This document shows positions 15,310 through 39,700 of a DNA stretch of 42,996 nucleotides, piece after piece. The stretch is from Porpidia crustulata (Eukaryota): NCBI GenBank assembly GCA_964255105.1, contig CAXUWE010000003.1, forward strand, positions 1 to 42,996, read 5' to 3'. The notes under the pieces are model-generated. The model did no database searches and was not told where the DNA came from. It saw only the letters and a program-made list of their open reading frames with translations. Every line of letters begins with the position of its first letter. The stretch's first letter is position 1. A program made the position numbers and the translations under genes.

Positions 15310-15343
15310 CTCGTATTTGTGTGAGCGTTCTACATAGCGCCAT

Positions 15344-15422
15344 CAGGGGGTGTCAAAAGTCAATGGAATATTTCGCTAGGGGTGTCTCGCTTAAGGACTC
15401 CAGTGACTTTTGGCACCCCCTG
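15344..15422. mobile_element. 79-bp MITE-like element with 24-bp imperfect terminal inverted repeats
   Basis: Left CAGGGGGTGTCAAAAGTCAATGGA vs reverse complement of right CAGGGGGTGCCAAAAGTCACTGGA (22/24). CAG-G-rich terminus resembles Tc1/mariner TIRs; no clean TA duplication. Confidence 0.65.
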
Positions 15423-15614
15423 GTACTGCTAATTCCATATCGAATTGTTAGTGAATAGTGAATTCGGCGTATGAATCGAGAGGTAGTTCACTAGATGTTA
15501 CGGAGGATGTATTGGTCCTGAATATTGCAACAATGGAAGCTTTCCAGGAATCCTCTACTCAACATACTCGTCATCCTCTGCCTTTGAAGCCCCCACCTCA
15601 GGCGCATAGCGATT

Positions 15615-19525: not shown

Positions 19526-21460
19526 CTAGTCATCTGGATATTCGTCCTTGATGTTGCTGACGAACTTATTCGACAATTCATCCCACCGCTTGAAGTACTG
19601 CCCTGCTAAAGCCATCAAGGAGCTAGGAAACTGCGACGTTACGATTTCAATATTCTCCTCCGCGACATATCGGACACTCTTGTCGTCAACACTGTGGTTG
19701 ATATTAGTCAGCAGATGCCCTTCACAGAGTGTATAAGATTCGCATACATACAGTGCGTGGTAGAAACTCTGATGCCTCCCCCTTGACAGTTGATGAACCC
19801 CCATATGTGACATCCAGTCTTCGTCGGCCTCGCATTTTGCATCCCATCCAGTAATCATGGCAAAGTAGTGATATCGCTTGTGCTGGAATACTTGTCCGAT
19901 CCTGTATTGAACGCTCTTCGCCGTCTCTGGCGTACGTCTTTTGATCGTTATAGGCATCGTATCCGCCGAGCGCATTGCAGCCATCATGTCACGTAACTCG
20001 GCAGCTTCGTCTGAGCTCTGGATGAAAGGCAGTACGTACTCTTCAATAAGGCCAACATCCATAGGGAAGTTATTCTCCATTTGTCCAAGAAGGTGAGTAA
20101 GGTATTGTGCCTGCGATGCATCAACAGTAACGGAAGTGCCATCAGTTAGCAACAATTGAACCCAGAGCGCTGCGTAGAACGCATTGTCCATTTCAGGAAG
20201 AAGACGATTGCTCGGGCTGCGAGGTATCATCTGGACGGAAGCCACGATATTCCTTGCAGTACGCCTCACAAGTTCGTCCTTGGGTGCTTTACATAGTAGC
20301 AGCGCATGATCTATCTCGGAAACACCCATAGCAATAAGTTGCGATTGCAGGTCAGAAACAGGAACCTCAACTCCTGTTCGGAATGGGTCCATATACATTG
20401 GCGGTGGCGCCAGCCCCTTTTCCCTCGCACTGATGAAATTCCCGTCCAAGTCCCTGTCTCCAGAGGGGGTAACAACAGCATACACATGGAAAGGAAAAGC
20501 GCATGGCTGAGCATCAAGGCCCAGTCTTTGGGCCACACAGCAGTATATCGCCACTGATATCAGTGGCAATGATGGATGATCCTCGTCCTGAAGTGCTATG
20601 CCTATGAAATTGTTTTGCAAGTCCCGGTAGCGGTCATCGCTCCTCACACCAGTCAAATTGTGCATCCTCATATGTGCGGCAATTATTGTGGCCTTTTTTC
20701 GCTCTGACATATCGTCAAAGTCGGGCACATCAGCCCGGATTCGTAGTGCTAGACCATCGAGGTCCTTGGAAATCTAGAGCAGTAATTAGCGGTGTATCCT
20801 CGACAAAGGTCGTTAAGGTTCACTTCAATAAAATCGCCTCTTTTATCATGCAGAACGAACATGTCAAACGCTGCGAGCGCCTTTTCAAGATCAAGCCCAT
20901 GCCCATTTCTGAACGCCAGCCATGCCTCAATCGCCATTCTTCGATGGAGGCATCCTAAGACCGTGTCGCTGTAATATCTAGATTCCAGCGTCAGCTTCGA
21001 GTCGCCTATCTTGACTACCCTTCTTATAGACGCACCGTCGAGCTAATACGTCTTCGGCGTCGTCGTCTACACGCAGATGTCGTACAAGGCTATCCTTTGT
21101 GTCGTAGCCATATCTAATTATACTCTCGCTCTTCTCGATCCGATTCGTTTGACTGCGAAGAATGCTATTGAGCTCAAGCGTTGTATGCCGGTCAATACTA
21201 TGGCGTTCCGAGAAGACCTTCTTCCAATCGCACTTTGTAACATTTTCGGTAAACCTTTGGTGTATTTGATGATGATTACTCCAGTACTTGAATTGGGTTT
21301 GACAATAGTACCGCCATAATAGCGGCTGCGAGAGCTCGTTAAATCTGTGAGAGACTTGCTGCAAAATCGGAGTTGAGACTGGGGACAAGAACGTAAGGAT
21401 CTGAAAAATAATCTCGTTGGGTAAGTCACTCAGTAACGTCTTAGAATTTCCTCGTTCCAT
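19526..21460 (-). CDS. F-box protein with transglutaminase-like core and YccV/hemimethylated-DNA-binding-like C-terminal domain (FBXO21-like)
   Basis: F-box LSDLPNEIIFQIL; SLPLISVAIYCCVAQRLG..FPFHV..YMDPF; YRIGQVFQHKRYHY..ITGWD..SVRYVAEENI..AGQYFKRWD. Confidence 0.9.
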
Positions 21461-21617
21461 GATGGCTGACAACACGAGCTGAGTCTGCAGGTACGGATAG
21501 CAGGATGAGGTTCTATAAACCACGACTGTTGGATCTACCTACTTTACAAAGTGCAAGGTAGTTCTATATGTCATCATACATCAGAAGTACCTTACGGGTA
21601 CCCAGTGTCATGGGGTA

Positions 21618-21762
21618 CTCGTTCCCACCCCCAAACGGTCCGCACCCCCAAACGGTCGGCGCTAAGCAAATCAGGCAATATAACCCTAACCCTATTATAC
21701 AGCCCTAACCCTAGGTGGGGCGGACCGTTTGGGGGTGCGGACCGTTTGGGGGTGGGAACGAG
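21618..21762. mobile_element. 145-bp MITE with 40-bp perfect TIRs, TA flanks and internal telomeric repeats
   Basis: TA at 21616-17 and 21763-64; 21618-21657 is the exact reverse complement of 21723-21762; interior has TAACCCTAACCCTA and CCCTAACCCTA. Confidence 0.85.
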
Positions 21763-22200
21763 TATGCCAAGATGCCAGTATCCACTCGGCAATCTAGATT
21801 CCTCAAGCTCAAGAACCACAGCTTTCTACTTGCAGATGTTACAGTTGGTCTTAACTCACACTTACAGACCCATGGCTGTTCTTGCGATCTGAACATGTTT
21901 CAAACCTCCTCTTGATTATATCTAACTAGATATTTGATTAATTCTAAAGGGAGAATCAAAGATCTCAACGTTGAGACTCAATTTGTTAATGCTTAATCAA
22001 GCATACCTATCATACCGAGATCAAGATCATCTCTTTTGGGGAGCATCATTATGTATGGTCCTTGCTTGAAACATCGAAACCAATTCTGATCACAGAGTTG
22101 CGCTTCAAGGGGTATTCGATCAAAGACAAAGCCACCTATTACCGCCGAAATCCCCAGCCAGCCGCCCAAAGCAGATCAGGACTTGACTAATTGTGTAGTA

Positions 22201-23753
22201 TCACATCAGACTGCATCTGCTATACTCCTTACCATACTGATCCACTCCCATACTCCGCTCGTTTTCTTTCTGTTTGATCCTAACTTCATGGGGAAAGTAG
22301 TTCTCCAGAAAGTTCATCAGGGCTGGGTCGAGGTTAGCTATCCCCAGAATTAGTATTATTTTCACAACCGCCCGAAGCAAAGGTACCAACCGCTATCAGC
22401 CTGCAAAATCACAGAATCCCTGCATAGGGGACAATGATCCTCCCTAGCCCTCTGCATCACGATCATACATCTTATACAGAAAATATGACCACACCTCAAT
22501 CTTATCGGCTTGAACGAGATGTTGTAACAGACAGGGCATAAGTAGTCATCAAGCTGTGGAATAAGCAAGATTAATTCCTCGGTGATCTTTGAACACATAG
22601 CTTTGGCCATTGTCTGGGACAAAAATGCATCTCCAGAATCGAGAGCCGCAAAAGTCTGTCGAGCACCCAGAGCGGTCCGCTTGTCGAATTCTATGGTCCT
22701 CTTAGTCTGTTAATTAGGTAGGATCTCGAGGCACTCACTCTTCATTATCTTTGTCATGGCTGTCGTGTTCAGCTCTTCGAATCTAAGGTTGCGAAGTAGG
22801 ACTGAATTCAAGTGTAGGAAACGGTTCAAGACCAGATAACTTTCTCTCTTTCGAAACCTTTGGGCAATTTTAAGATCCTGCAGTTTAGATGAGAATTCGT
22901 GCAGCTGCTTCTCGGCTGTTCTTGTGTCGCGAGTCCGTTCCTCCTGCTCGTTAGTGGAGAAGAAAATTTGAGACTCGCTATAATGGCCGAAGATCTCTCT
23001 CCATGCGTACATGTCTGTCCTTGTGGAATTGCGGGACGGCGCAGCTACCCTTACTATTTCTTGGCCAATACTTCCAATCTCCTTTATTAGCTCTGTTTTC
23101 TCGTGACACTGCAGAGCCTTGAGCCTTGATACTCCTGATCTGAGCATCTGGAAGAACTCGTGATCGTGCCTCAGAGGGACTTCTACCTGATTGTAATCGA
23201 TCCCGTCCCCGGTTTCAATTGAAGCATTACTGACATGACTTATGAGCCCTTCTCCGGCTTGGCATGAAGTGCTATCTTCACGCTTAATGCCAGCTTCTGC
23301 TTCGCTCACTGGTAGTCTGTCGTTTGCGAAGACCAACTCGGCTCTTTGGCCGGAATTCTGACTATTGACGACTAAGTTTTGTAATTTAGTTCTGGTTCCT
23401 GGTGATAAGCAAGCATCTATGGGAACTCCACTACTTGAATTCACTAAGAAGATAAGTTTGGGTTCGAAAGTGGTGATGTTGCCTGCAAAATCCCTTAGTT
23501 TCACATTGTACTAGCTAGCGAAATGAAGCATACCCTCCAGCTTATATTGGAACGGTTCCCAATTGCTATAATACTGCTTAGGAGGATTCCATAGCTGCCT
23601 TAGTGTGCTTGCATCGAGGCCTATACTCGAGAGCTCATGTTCAACCTTCTTAATGCATTTTTTCAGCTGCCGATACGCTATGGCGGACAGCACCCAGTGG
23701 TCTGGGAAACCTTCGGCTATCAAGGCAATCTCATACTCGTGAGCGAACTTCAT
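22201..23753 (-). CDS. SPX domain + C3HC4 RING E3 ubiquitin ligase (S. pombe Pqr1/Spx1-like, plant NLA-like architecture)
   Basis: SPX start MKFAHEY...IAYRQLKKCIKKV, LNTTAMTKIMK|KFDKRT, RING CPVC..CGHIFCIRC..CPLCR, terminal NYFPHEVRIKQKENE. Confidence 0.9.
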
Positions 23754-24067
23754 GCCGCACGTGAACACAACGTTGCGACCGCGTTGCTTCAATCATACGA
23801 AGCCGAGAGGGACGCTCAGCGTGTACCGCTCTCTGGGGAAAATGCTCAATTGGAATGTCTGGGATTAACCGGATTTACGGGGGGGTCGATGAACAACAGA
23901 TATTAAGAGACAACATCTGAACAAAGGCATGCCTACAAGAGAATGTACTTAGATATTAATATAGAGGGTTTTGGCATCTAGTCTGGCTTAGTGGCGTAGA
24001 TAGTTCCAATAGAGGGTTCGGGTATCACCCAAACTCAAATCAGGCGGACTTTACGGCGTTATCTCTA

Positions 24068-24160
24068 CTCGCATTCACCCCTCAACGGAGCAGCTGACAT
24101 AGGGTTAGGGTTATCTCCATGGGCTTGAGCCTAGCGGTTCCGTTGAGGGCTGAATACGAG
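24068..24160. mobile_element. 93-bp MITE with 22-bp TIRs, TA flanks and internal telomeric repeat
   Basis: TA at 24066-67 and 24161-62; left CTCGCATTCACCCCTCAACGGA vs reverse complement of right CTCGTATTCAGCCCTCAACGGA (20/22); TAGGGTTAGGGTTA at 24100-24113. Confidence 0.8.
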
Positions 24161-24300
24161 TACTCTAGTGGTGAGCCCCCTTGAGCCACAAATATAGCGT
24201 TTGGTATATAATTTTTGGGAAGGGAAGCCTACCAATATACGTGTCCCGCAATACTACTTGACAAGATCATCAATATCATGCCGACGATCCTGTATCTACC

Positions 24301-26057
24301 ATGGGAGCAGATCATTCGTCGGGCACTGGCGATAGCAGTGGCACTGGAGAGAGACCGCAACAGAGTCCTCGAGAAGTGAAGACATGTTATTACGAGGTTC
24401 TTGGAGTTGAACGCCAGGCTTCAGAAGACGAGTAGGCAGTATTATGGTGTTTTACACTTCGGAGGACGCTTATTGACTCTACAGGATCAAGAAAGCGTAC
24501 CGCAAGAAAGCCTTGGAACTTCATCCAGATCGGAATTATGGGAATATTGAAGAGACTACGAGGCTCTTTGCTGAGGTCCAATCGGCGTATGAGGTGCTCT
24601 CAGACCTTCAGGAAAGAGCGTGGTATGACTCGCACCGCGATGCTATCCTTGGGAATGAGGCGGAGGTATCTGGAGGGACCTTTGAGCACAACGTACGCCT
24701 CACATCCGCGGAAGATCTAATGCGCATATTCGGCAAGTTCGCTGGGAAGGTTGATCTCTCGGATTCGAGTACAGGCTTTTACAGTGTTCTTCGAGACACT
24801 TTTGCTACTCTCGCAAGAGAGGAAGCACTAGCCTGTGAATGGGAGGATCTTGACTGTGTTGTGTACCCGTCGTTTGGGAATGCCAACGATGATCATGATG
24901 ACGTGGTCAAGCCCTTCTACACTGCATGGAGCAGTTTCGTAACTGCAAAGAGCTTTTCGTGGAAAGACGTCTATCGATATCCAGATGCGCCTGATAGGAG
25001 AATACGGCGCTTGATGGAAAAAGAAAACAAGCGATTTCGCGGAGAAGGCATCCGAGAATTCAATGATGCTGTGAGATCTCTTGTAGCTTTCGTCAGGAAA
25101 CGCGATCCAAGATTCAAACCGAATACTCAAAGCGAGGCGGATCGACAGAAGACTCTACGTGATGCAGTTGCGGCTCAAGCTGCTCGTTCAAGAGCAGCCA
25201 ATCAAGCCAAGTCTACCCCTGCAGAATCAGTACCAGACTGGATGATGAGCCAAGAGGCGTATGACGATGGTGAAAGTGACGAGAGCGGGGCCCCACCTGA
25301 CGAGCATGTCGAATGCGTCGTGTGTAAGAAGTCATTTAAGAGTGAAAAGCAATATGAAGCACATGAGAAGAGCAAGAAACATGTCAGAGCCATTCAACAG
25401 CTCCGAAGACAAATGGAAAAAGAGAACATAATTTTCGAGCTACAAAAGGACAACAATGTTATAGAAGCAAGACCTACTGAAGTCGAAACCCAGAATATTT
25501 CATGTGTACTTACAGATGGGTCTGCAAAAGAATTCAACGAAGCCAGCGAAGAGCAATCGAAAAGTAATCATACAGCCCTCCGTACTAGCGGAAGCGACCA
25601 AGTAGATGATGACCAGGCAGAGATAGTCATTCAAGCTACGTTGAGACCGAAAGACAGACCGGAACTGAATTCCGATGATGATCCATCGTCCTCTTCCAGC
25701 TCAGACGATGAGTACGCAAATCGAAGCAAGGTCGAAAGCCGAATCCTAGACGAAGTCAAAGCAGATGACTCACATCAGAACGTTTCGTCATTGGATGTCG
25801 ACGTCGACGGTGTGTCAACTGCACTCGCCGCAGATCATCAAACCATGCCACCGAAGCTCGGTAAAGCAAAAGTAAAACGCGCCAAAAAGGCTGCGCAAAA
25901 GGCTGTGAGGGTTGCCAGCTCGGACACAGAGTTCAAATGTGCAGCATGTCAGGCGGGATTCCCTTCTAAGACTAGGCTGTTTAACCATATCAAAGACCTG
26001 GGACACGCACAGCAAATATCTGAAGCCGCAAAAGGCGCAGAGGGAAAGAAGCGTTGA
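24301..26057 (+). CDS. JJJ1: J-domain protein with C2H2 zinc fingers (Jjj1/DNAJC21-like, 60S biogenesis co-chaperone)
   Basis: YYEVLGV..|IKKAYRKKALELHPDRN (HPD motif), ERAWYDSHR, RRLMEKENKR, zinc fingers CVVCKKSF..HEKSKKH and CAAC..F..LFNH; intron 24432-24484. Confidence 0.9.
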
Positions 26058-26651
26058 GGACATCGCATCGGCGCCTGGCGTTTCAAACGAGGGATAGAAT
26101 TCTAGGATTGACGGCGATAAACTTTAAAAGTGCAGTGGCGCGATGGGTTTGATGCTTTCGCGGAGCGTTCTGGTGTGCGATTTACATCTGGAGGAGGTTG
26201 CATTGAAGGACCTGATGAGCGATCGATGGTGCTGTCGTGACCGGAATCTCTCCATTTACACGCAACACACAGATCATACAGCTACTGTCAAGACAATATA
26301 GAAGCCGCCATACCTTAGTTGAATAATACCGCTTGGCTGCGATATCTACCAAACCCCTTGCTCATAGATTTTGGTTGTCACTGTCGGTGAGGGCGAGAAA
26401 TGCTGCCATAGGTTTATCAAGTGTCGAACGGACGAGCCAGATCCTTAATTCCACCCGGTAAATGCTTTTGTTGTCAATCCCGATTGTAGGTAGGCCATGG
26501 ATCGTTCTATTCACGTCAGGTTCGACAGAAACTCACTTTTTTTTCTCCGACATTTCAAAGCTTTTTGCGTTCCTGATCTTCAGCAAGGTAAGATCCTGGA
26601 GCGCGCTCATCATTCACAATTGAGGATCGAGATGGCTTCTGGCTTGAATAA

Positions 26652-26666
26652 TAGGGTTAGGGTTAG
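26652..26666 (+). repeat. Interstitial telomere-type repeat TAGGGTTAGGGTTAG
   Basis: Read directly; its flank resembles the interior of the 21.6-kb MITE. Confidence 0.8.
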
Positions 26667-27193
26667 TGCGGTATATAACCTTCGGTCAACTTCAATAGCT
26701 TAGCTGTATAAAAAGGAGGGTATCTTAAGTGTGGTAAAGCGTCTCCAAAATGTGCAAGGCATGTGAAGGAGTCCGTACGACTAAGAAAAACATAAATGGG
26801 TTTACAAAAGATCATCTCTTGATTCCTTCTAGGAACATCATGTTTATTCCATGGGGAATCATGCTGGATAAATTTCCGTGATTCTGACAAGGAATTACAC
26901 CAAGTCTGCTTGTACTTGTTCGGTAGCAACCTAGCAGTCCTTTCATTACGACGATATCATCTACATGTAACAGGCAGACAGGGGCACTTTACTTCGATGG
27001 AATATCAGACTTGCGCATCGAGCTCCAGTTCTATAGCAAAGAGAACGACAGCGCCCAGGAACCCTCTTATGCAATGTGAAAATGTCCAGCTCGCTATATC
27101 ATACAGAAAATTCTTTCCTCTCCATTTCCGAGCAACGGTACAAGCGAAACTCAGCGCGCTCTATCGTACAGTCTCATCGCCATTGCCCAACCC

Positions 27194-38020: not shown

Positions 38021-39700
38021 ATGCTTGCTGATATGATTGTCCTCGAACTGTATATGGCGTCAGCTACAGTCGATAAGTATTTCGAATTCATAGAAGTAGC
38101 ACCAGAGAGTATTAAGACATTGGATGTTATTAAGGCAGACCAATCTGAATTCTGTAACGCTTCAGATGGCGCTGAAGTTAACTTACATGGAGATGATGTG
38201 TCTCATCGATCCCACATTGGTTCCGAGCACTATTCTACGCTCCCGCTGCGCGGGAATCTATCGTTGTGTTCAAAATTTCGAGTTGCGAGAAGCGATGCAA
38301 AGCAAATATATTAAATTTGCTCTTTTTTTCGCTCGAATTCGCTGAATCCTGAAATCGGGATCAAAGTTTTGAATACAACGATAGACAGGTCGCCTGACGG
38401 CAGAGGCCGGTCAGTAAGCAAGTTGATGGAGTAGGATGAAGATCTTGTAATCGCAGAGGAAACGATCAAGCTGCTCAAAAAATTTGGTCCTCGAAACGCC
38501 GAAGTCGAAGGTATGACAGAACGGATTCGACTAAGTGTACTTGTGGAGGGATCGCTTCCTGATAAAGTCCAGGCCAAAATCACATAAAGCCGGAACACAT
38601 CGTCAATCTTGAGGGGAATATGCGTTGCTGAACAATACGATGCAGTTTGAGGGTCCATAATGCTGGTATACGTGGTGCTTCCTCAACGTCAATCGTCGTA
38701 ATGACAACAGCCAGCTGATGTTCGATTTTTTGATGGACCGTCGGGTGACGGACGATATCAATAAAAATAACCTTTGAAGCTCCGCATTGGGACGCTATAA
38801 TTAATGGGATTCCTGTCATTGACTATACAGAGATGAGCAACATTGAGAACGTTCAGGCAATATATAATATCGAGGTTAAGCACGACCGCCGCAAAATGAA
38901 AAAAAGTACATCCTGGGACAAGGATGCTATTTACACGGGAAGCGTCTTGTGCGGCATTCGAAACAGATGGGACTGGAAGGGATGAAAGCGAGGAAAGCTC
39001 GTAAGGGTTCATCTAAAGCGACCGGTAGCGACAAGTCAGCGGGCAGGATGCATGAGGCGAGCCCGCGAAAAGGCATGCATCTTAATATAGAATGTTTTAG
39101 CAGACTTCCAAGTTGCAGTGCAAAAAGTCCTCGTGCAGCAATCGCGATTGGCTACTGCGATCTGCTGTTAGAGAGCTTATGGATAATCTTCAAAGGTCAC
39201 CTTTCCCTCCGCTCCGCGACTTTGGACAGTGTCAAAGATAATGGGGACAGCGAAGTATGCAAGTTCGACCTATCTGGTCGGAAGACATGCTGGCTCTACC
39301 CTGGACTGGAGAAAACTAGCTGGTCCCCATCAAGTAGGGCACACGCTTTGGGGTTTTAGGATGGTCGAAACAAGAAGACGAAATCTTTCACAAATTCCCT
39401 GGCGATTATTGCACATCACTGATACAAAACTTAGATGACACGAGGGAGTATCTAACCTGTTCAAAGGCTCTCAAAGAGCTATAGCTACTTTGTATAAGAC
39501 TTTGCATAATGTACACTGACGGGAAAAGGCAACGTACCATGAATATCAATCGACGAATTTCCAGACTCGTTTCCGACCTCATATCTAGGGGATAAGCAAC
39601 TGCTGTCGTTTGTAGATCTTGAATCTTTGAAGACAGCGACGGCCCAACTCCACTTAGCATATTTTCTCTATCGGTAGGAAGAGCGCTGGCATGATAGAAC
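38021..39700 (+). pseudogene. Probable decayed repeat-containing (ankyrin-like) gene
   Basis: One frame from 38021 to about 38650 reads as protein across isolated stops; later fragments QLMFDFLMDRR, RLVSDLISRG* and EDSDGPTPLS resemble ankyrin-type repeats. Boundaries uncertain. Confidence 0.35.

Follow-up and report, generated by a model that had tools for sequence, protein, structure and literature searches.

Transposons of the TcMar-Fot1 group, such as Fot1, Tan1, Aft1 and Trem, are about 2 kb long, duplicate a TA, and encode a transposase that combines HTH_psq, a CENP-B-type HTH and DDE_1. Direct repeats of 17 bp are typical of Fot1-like TIRs (PMC2836289), and most described Sclerotinia families end in ACGT (PMC4188875). 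Small, TA-flanked, multi-copy elements with a bias toward the 5' ends of genes include EFT-25m and EFT-29m of Epichloe, Guest of Neurospora, and mimp of Fusarium (PMC3227409). In the germline of the ciliate Oxytricha, the TBE elements form Tc1/mariner families with distinct TIRs, nearly all of which contain the host telomeric repeat, and they carry three ORFs of 42, 22, and 57 kDa (PMC4724952). The same repeat is also known from host promoters. Teb1 of S. pombe binds AGGGTTAGGGTT in histone promoters with a KD of 53 nM (PMC4839565), and Tbf1 is described as a nucleosome-excluding, insulating factor, with mobile elements having been proposed as a source of interstitial repeats (PMC6410037). The roles of the Tay1 family are treated in PMC7952879. 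Each of these sources is cited here from excerpts of its text.

The window, meaning the whole 42,996-nucleotide stretch of DNA that was analysed, is gene-dense fungal DNA. As had been predicted, it contains two elements with a TA at both ends (TA/21618-21762/TA and TA/24068-24160/TA), here called copies 1 and 2 (Table 1). They do have a telomeric sequence in common: ATAACCCTAACCCTAT, a 16-mer around (TAACCC)2, occurs in both, and the two elements lie in opposite orientations. We take the host telomere repeat to be TTAGGG, as is general for filamentous ascomycetes, and refer to (TTAGGG)2 as the doublet. Matches to TAACCCTAACCC number three in the window, against 0.07 expected. Copy 1 is made up of a 97-bp unit plus two 17-bp duplications and one 19-bp duplication, and its 17-bp modules are putative transposase sites. 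Its arms are perfect over 42 nt with the TA (40 nt without), 44 of 45 nt matching overall, and those of copy 2 match at 22 of 24 nt. A twin of copy 1, identical in sequence, lies between unrelated flanks on contig C1748. The TIRs had been described as 40 and 22 bp long and as diverging after a few bases. These lengths are right, and they differ because the 17-bp module has been duplicated on each arm of copy 1. The divergence did not hold up: 17 of the first 25 nt agree between the elements, and both sets of TIRs share CACCCC(T/C)(C/A)AACGG. On sequence grounds, the TIRs of copies 1 and 2 are homologous, not unrelated.

Table 1. Coordinates of the two elements, their parts, and the neighboring genes in the window.
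Feature	Position	Strand	Remarks
MITE copy 1, including both TA	21616..21764	.	149 bp; young sublineage, module ACCCCCAAACGG
Copy 1, left TIR arm	21616..21660	+	TA, 9-nt terminus, 17-bp direct-repeat modules 21627-21643 and 21644-21660
Copy 1, doublet (TTAGGG)2	21681..21694	-	Plus strand reads TAACCCTAACCCTA
Copy 1, second doublet, one mismatch	21700..21713	-	Product of the 19-bp core duplication
Copy 1, right TIR arm	21720..21764	-	Modules 21720-21736 and 21737-21753, then terminus and TA
MITE copy 2, including both TA	24066..24162	.	Canonical 97 bp; older sublineage, module ACCCCTCAACGG
Copy 2, doublet TAGGGTTAGGGTTA	24100..24113	+	34 nt from outer TA
F-box gene, first exon	20978..21460	-	Neighbor; ATG at 21460, 155 bp from copy 1
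SPX-domain gene, first exon	23511..23753	-	Neighbor; ATG at 23753, about 310 bp from copy 2
JJJ1-like gene	24301..26057	+	Neighbor; zuotin-homology domain and C2H2 fingers; ATG (presumed) at 138 bp from copy 2

The distances of the elements to the F-box, SPX, and JJJ1-like genes had been given correctly. The ORF at 24301..26057 is taken to be JJJ1-like, and its first 44 aa have no Pfam match. Rfam gave no match in window positions 21300-27000. Elsewhere in the window, a third doublet (26654-26665) stands alone, with no TIR nearby, outside any element and within the chance background. A short hairpin element at 15335-15431 has 33-nt arms that are 82% complementary and an outer TA at both ends; its sequence is unrelated, and it is probably a different MITE. 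An inverted repeat at 38257-38385, with 25-nt arms 79 nt apart, is possibly a degenerate MITE.

The elements had been placed in a dispersed family of Tc1/mariner-type MITEs, and the genome bears this out. Each recovers dozens of relatives in the 22.9-Mb assembly, these counts being lower bounds, and the TIR pattern has 184 matches at up to 1 mismatch versus none for a control. Complete two-ended copies number 75 and measure 70-159 bp; they were called without using the core (the conserved telomeric stretch), although many of the fetched loci in which they were called had been picked via the core. TA is present at both ends in 66 of them. The copies are short, non-coding, and dispersed, with TIRs, a TA duplication, and homogeneous subfamilies, and in sequence both window elements fall into a single MITE superfamily. 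Its base unit measures 97 bp; common variants gain 17 bp where the module of one arm or the other is duplicated, or 19 bp where the core is. There are from one to four modules per end, the modules include ACCCCTCAACGG, ACCCCCAAACGG, ACCCCTCATCGG, ACCCCTAGTTCG, and ACCCAGCAACGA, and both arms change together; the termini are CTCG or CTCA. A young copy has been inserted into an older one, where a single TA is now doubled (L020 compared with L032). Identical copies are found at unrelated flanks (one pair and one trio) and many young ends are located at contig breaks, which suggests recent movement. A search of public sequencing runs found the window locus in one run, with none of RNA among those listed.

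Family copies are often nested in or adjoining other copies (L003, L013, L020, L169, L179). At L106:57-430 (G000:C758), a copy is broken by another, unrelated element that measures about 250 bp and whose own TIRs start with CACGCGGGAG. The short element at L229 (G000:C1381:2387-2499) has TACTCRT ends and a different module, and is without the telomeric core.

The core, TAGGGTTAGGGTT, is present within 2 mismatches in 71 of the 75 copies, mostly at a distance from the end of 34 nt, to which multiples of 17 or 19 may be added. Three copies are without it, four have it on both ends, and in the youngest sublineage it is duplicated. Most MITEs have the doublet on one end only, whereas the parent described below has it on both. 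As a check on selection bias, copies were sought by their terminal 7-mers alone, giving 45 matches versus 17 for a control. Here too, family members keep TTAGGG as predicted: the core is found within 2 mismatches in 27 of the 29 copies that pass a two-end filter, and by eye it can be seen in five more family matches that fail this filter. Sixteen of the 29 copies can be collapsed to a 97-nt frame, yielding 11 lineages. Across these, pairwise identity is 0.84 in the core, 0.61-0.65 in the modules, 0.52 in the spacer, and 0.50 in the interior (column permutation, p 0.00015), in line with the proposal that the core is kept as the TIR modules turn over. Comparison of the sublineages shows that they swap the module, presumed to be a transposase site, but hold the doublet at a fixed spacing.

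The doublet was also followed from the genome side. There are 180 exact doublets in the genome versus 13 matches for a control, and the first 100 of those listed were classified (97 after de-duplication), with 4% false calls on random DNA. The expected enrichment in elements is clear: 81 of the 97 show at least one character of the family and 71 show two, and a stricter membership score, which misses ends with 37-nt spacing, still assigns 63 of the 97. The elements thus supply most of the (TTAGGG)2 among the doublets examined.

Where does the doublet come from? Some doublet-bearing ends run into longer sequence, and a pogo-type transposase ORF is joined to family ends at loci L057 and L193. 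At L193 and L140, the family end and doublet are followed by a short leader and then by a pogo N-terminus matching the L057 ORF; for L140, a Tc1-like reading of this N-terminus is ruled out by the pogo-like match. The single pogo-type ORF of L057 contains HTH_psq, HTH_Tnp_Tc5, and DDE_1. Its 5' end has two modules and is degenerate, as is the doublet there, which lies about 55 nt ahead of the ATG; it was through this end, not through the window module, that L057 was linked to the family. L057 is defective: its first catalytic Asp is replaced by Val, a portion of the C-terminus is deleted, and its probable 3' end is degenerate, with no doublet seen there. In the assembly, the parent is represented by this dead copy and by a truncated 5' end. 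A relative, P0002 (67% identical), keeps all three catalytic Asp. The relatives of the protein are pogo/Tan1-like (710 matches at E below 1e-20 among 2,420 candidates); those that are named come from filamentous ascomycetes, including lichen fungi, and the named Tan1-like matches are 36% identical. No relative of the transposase was found in viral contigs.

The two ends of the parent can be seen in a collapsed 2,165-bp contig, found by matching public contigs to the end at L236, in a run that is probably from the source sample. The contig starts with a match to L236:1-162, the transposon 5' end, and its other end is identical to L236:134-180 read on the opposite strand, where the doublet and the module are found. 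A multi-copy element of about 2.2 kb therefore has the doublet in both TIRs. Known from its ends alone, the contig has a depth of 189, versus 10.5-11.7 in neighboring contigs, which is a rough guide to copy number. The parent has a long TIR of about 56 bp made up of the terminus, a 17-bp module, a spacer, and (TTAGGG)2. The original prediction had the doublet as internal cargo enclosed by the elements; from L193, L140, L057, and the 2,165-bp contig, it instead lies within the long TIR of the parent transposon. In its module the parent is unlike the youngest MITEs, and because long ends carry other modules, further unassembled parents are suggested. It is highly probable that the window elements are MITEs that derive from a lineage of Fot1/pogo-like DDE_1 transposons, were mobilized in trans, and went into TA sites.

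Beside the doublet in the parent TIR, at L236:140-166, a third telomere repeat lies in inverted orientation and makes up a small head-to-head palindrome. Two AT-rich, non-coding derivatives of about 400 bp (L176:1-475 and L178:3100-3500) are partly palindromic, carry doublets at both ends, and are about 85% identical to each other. The long doublet-bearing ends at L137, L145, L155, and L140 are interrupted 130-250 bp in by repeats starting with TG, the same repeat in three of them; these are possibly LTRs. Other candidate parents were set aside: around 13 DDE_1/DDE_3 loci, no end with the window module was found at up to 3 mismatches, and the Tc1-like DDE_3 elements at L063:1285-2753 (with an open 377-aa frame) and L064:607-1894 have their own, different TIRs.

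Outside this genome, a metagenome scan for the family gave five matches. Three are chance matches in prokaryote-like DNA, and a fourth (L089) is one-ended and near a contig end. The fifth is a true relative on a metagenome contig from another source (L091:2779-3023); this element is 245 bp long, shares the TIR of the family, and has its 17-bp module duplicated. It has a single TTAGGG at the doublet position, which suggests that some relatives do without the doublet.

Why the doublet has been kept can be approached by asking what might bind it. A gene for a TTAGGG-binding factor had been anticipated, and a Tbf1/TRF-domain gene is indeed present, with a Myb-like stretch seen by eye. In the model that we propose, a host Myb/telobox protein of the Tbf1 or Tay1 type would bind the doublet next to the transposase site. 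Once bound, it could keep the element end nucleosome-free or help the transposase to assemble, and it may at the same time activate the transposase promoter, which is 55-70 bp downstream. If such binding raised mobility, lineages that kept or duplicated the telobox would spread, and selection would act on the mobility of the element rather than on the genes of the host. Incidentally, this would have scattered telobox sites numbering on the order of 150, most of them upstream of genes. That a host telobox protein binds the doublet beside the transposase site and raises mobility is given an even chance here. This reading is favored because the core is kept across lineages and duplicated in the youngest sublineage, and because the TRF-domain gene is present. 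Counting against it are the presence of the doublet on mostly one MITE end, its escape from RIP, and a parent module unlike that of the youngest MITEs, and the single TTAGGG of L091 and the three copies without a core argue against the doublet being a necessity. A broader version can only be put forward tentatively: the transposon would use a host telomere-binding Myb as cofactor, and its MITEs, having made most of the interstitial (TTAGGG)2 sites of this genome and placed them in promoters, would alter the Tbf1/Tay1 regulon or serve as mobile insulators that exclude nucleosomes.

The doublet could instead be an accessory site of the transposase itself, either an inner binding site or an end enhancer, its telomeric identity being due to origin or chance and no host protein being involved. 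Its location inside the parent TIR at a fixed spacing from the module would fit, as would the two HTH domains of the transposase. However, a transposase site should drift along with its protein, and it is the module that varies strongly across lineages, not the doublet. The doublet also equals the known Teb1 site, and L091 does without it, so that an accessory site is possible but doubtful.

Less probable again is that the doublet is an element or relic of the parent's transposase promoter, passive in the MITEs, and only appears to be conserved for lack of RIP/CpG targets. It does lie 55-70 bp before the transposase ATG, and one MITE end has lost it. It also contains no CpA or CpG, and so escapes RIP and deamination. 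Immunity to RIP alone is nevertheless insufficient to account for the conservation of the core, since the A/T columns reach a conservation of only 0.68 in the interior versus 0.92 in the core. Moreover, MITEs that have no ORF keep the doublet across module types, one sublineage has duplicated it, and the parent has it at the 3' end too, all of which makes a passive relic rather improbable. If the doublet were passive, this would be an ordinary new pogo/MITE family.

Another explanation is that the host retains the copies since the telobox regulates or insulates neighboring promoters. The position of the copies in the genome bears directly on this. Gene context was obtained from a home-made hexamer coding model, a rough annotation, the null being drawn from TA sites of the window and of unselected stretches totalling 200 kb. 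None of the 142 element sites overlaps a called coding segment, and 49 are flanked on both sides by coding segments within 1.4 kb, the other 93 being unclassifiable. The placement upstream of genes seen in the window recurs in the genome: among the 49 copies that can be classified, 45 have a gene's 5' end as their nearest, versus 51% for the null (interval 43-59%), and none lies between convergent genes, versus 26%. Three other thresholds agree. These figures would suit exaptation, as would the 81 of 97 exact doublets borne by elements. However, fungal MITEs usually show such a bias (PMC3227409, excerpt), and because a weaker 5' bias is published there for Epichloe MITEs, function is not implied by the bias alone. 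The orientation of the elements relative to the gene is random (23:22). After insertion, in the 29 copies found by 7-mers, the core is off consensus at 6.4% of sites (4.0% leaving out the two copies that lost it), versus 4.9% arm asymmetry. The core thus decays at much the same rate as the arms and shows no sign of being selected or protected by the host once inserted, and retention by the host is very improbable. Finally, it is hardly credible that the repeats cap or heal excised ends as telomeres do, even though the layout of the ciliate TBE might suggest it and telomeric repeats in Tc1/mariner TIRs have this precedent (PMC4724952, excerpt), since there are only two repeats, they lie 34-37 nt inside the end, and their G-rich strand points into the element, the reverse of the arrangement at a chromosome end.

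Whichever reading of the doublet holds, a concrete origin can now be given for short interstitial telomeric repeats in a fungus, as most of those examined belong to one transposon family. The 97-bp element is an easily mutated substrate for asking whether a cut-and-paste transposon recruits a host telomere or chromatin factor, and the same substrate bears on whether elements seed general-regulatory-factor sites in promoters.

The original prediction of an undescribed system has to be narrowed, as the elements belong, as a variant, to the known class of Fot1/pogo transposons with MITEs. In the literature searched, mostly the main texts of open papers, there was no fungal pogo element or MITE with telomeric repeats in its TIR, and excerpts of PMC4522978 and PMC3585121 describe no such MITE. 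Judged from this literature, the doublet inside the TIR would be a new feature within that class. With Fot1, Tan1, Aft1, and Trem, the family shares the TA duplication, the domains of the transposase, and the length, and the 17-bp repeats of Fot1-like TIRs (PMC2836289, excerpt) are present here too. The CTCG termini set it apart, as far as sequence goes, from the named Sclerotinia families with their ACGT (PMC4188875, excerpt), but not from the Fot1/pogo clade. What distinguishes it from Fot1-like elements is a TIR that extends to (TTAGGG)2, with one to four modules per end. The Epichloe EFT MITEs, Guest, and mimp are alike in size, flanking TA, copy number, and 5' bias; compared by description only, they come with no mention of a telomeric core in the main text of PMC3227409. 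The Oxytricha TBE share the telomeric repeat but are ciliate germline elements with three ORFs, whereas L057 has a single pogo-type ORF, the parent is about 2.2 kb, and the family has MITE derivatives, with a repeat that is internal to the TIR and points inward. The S. pombe HisBox bound by Teb1 and the yeast Tbf1 sites have the same AGGGTTAGGGTT doublet upstream of genes (PMC4839565, excerpt). Those sites are host promoter elements, whereas the motif of the window family is borne by a mobile element, as a putative binding site.
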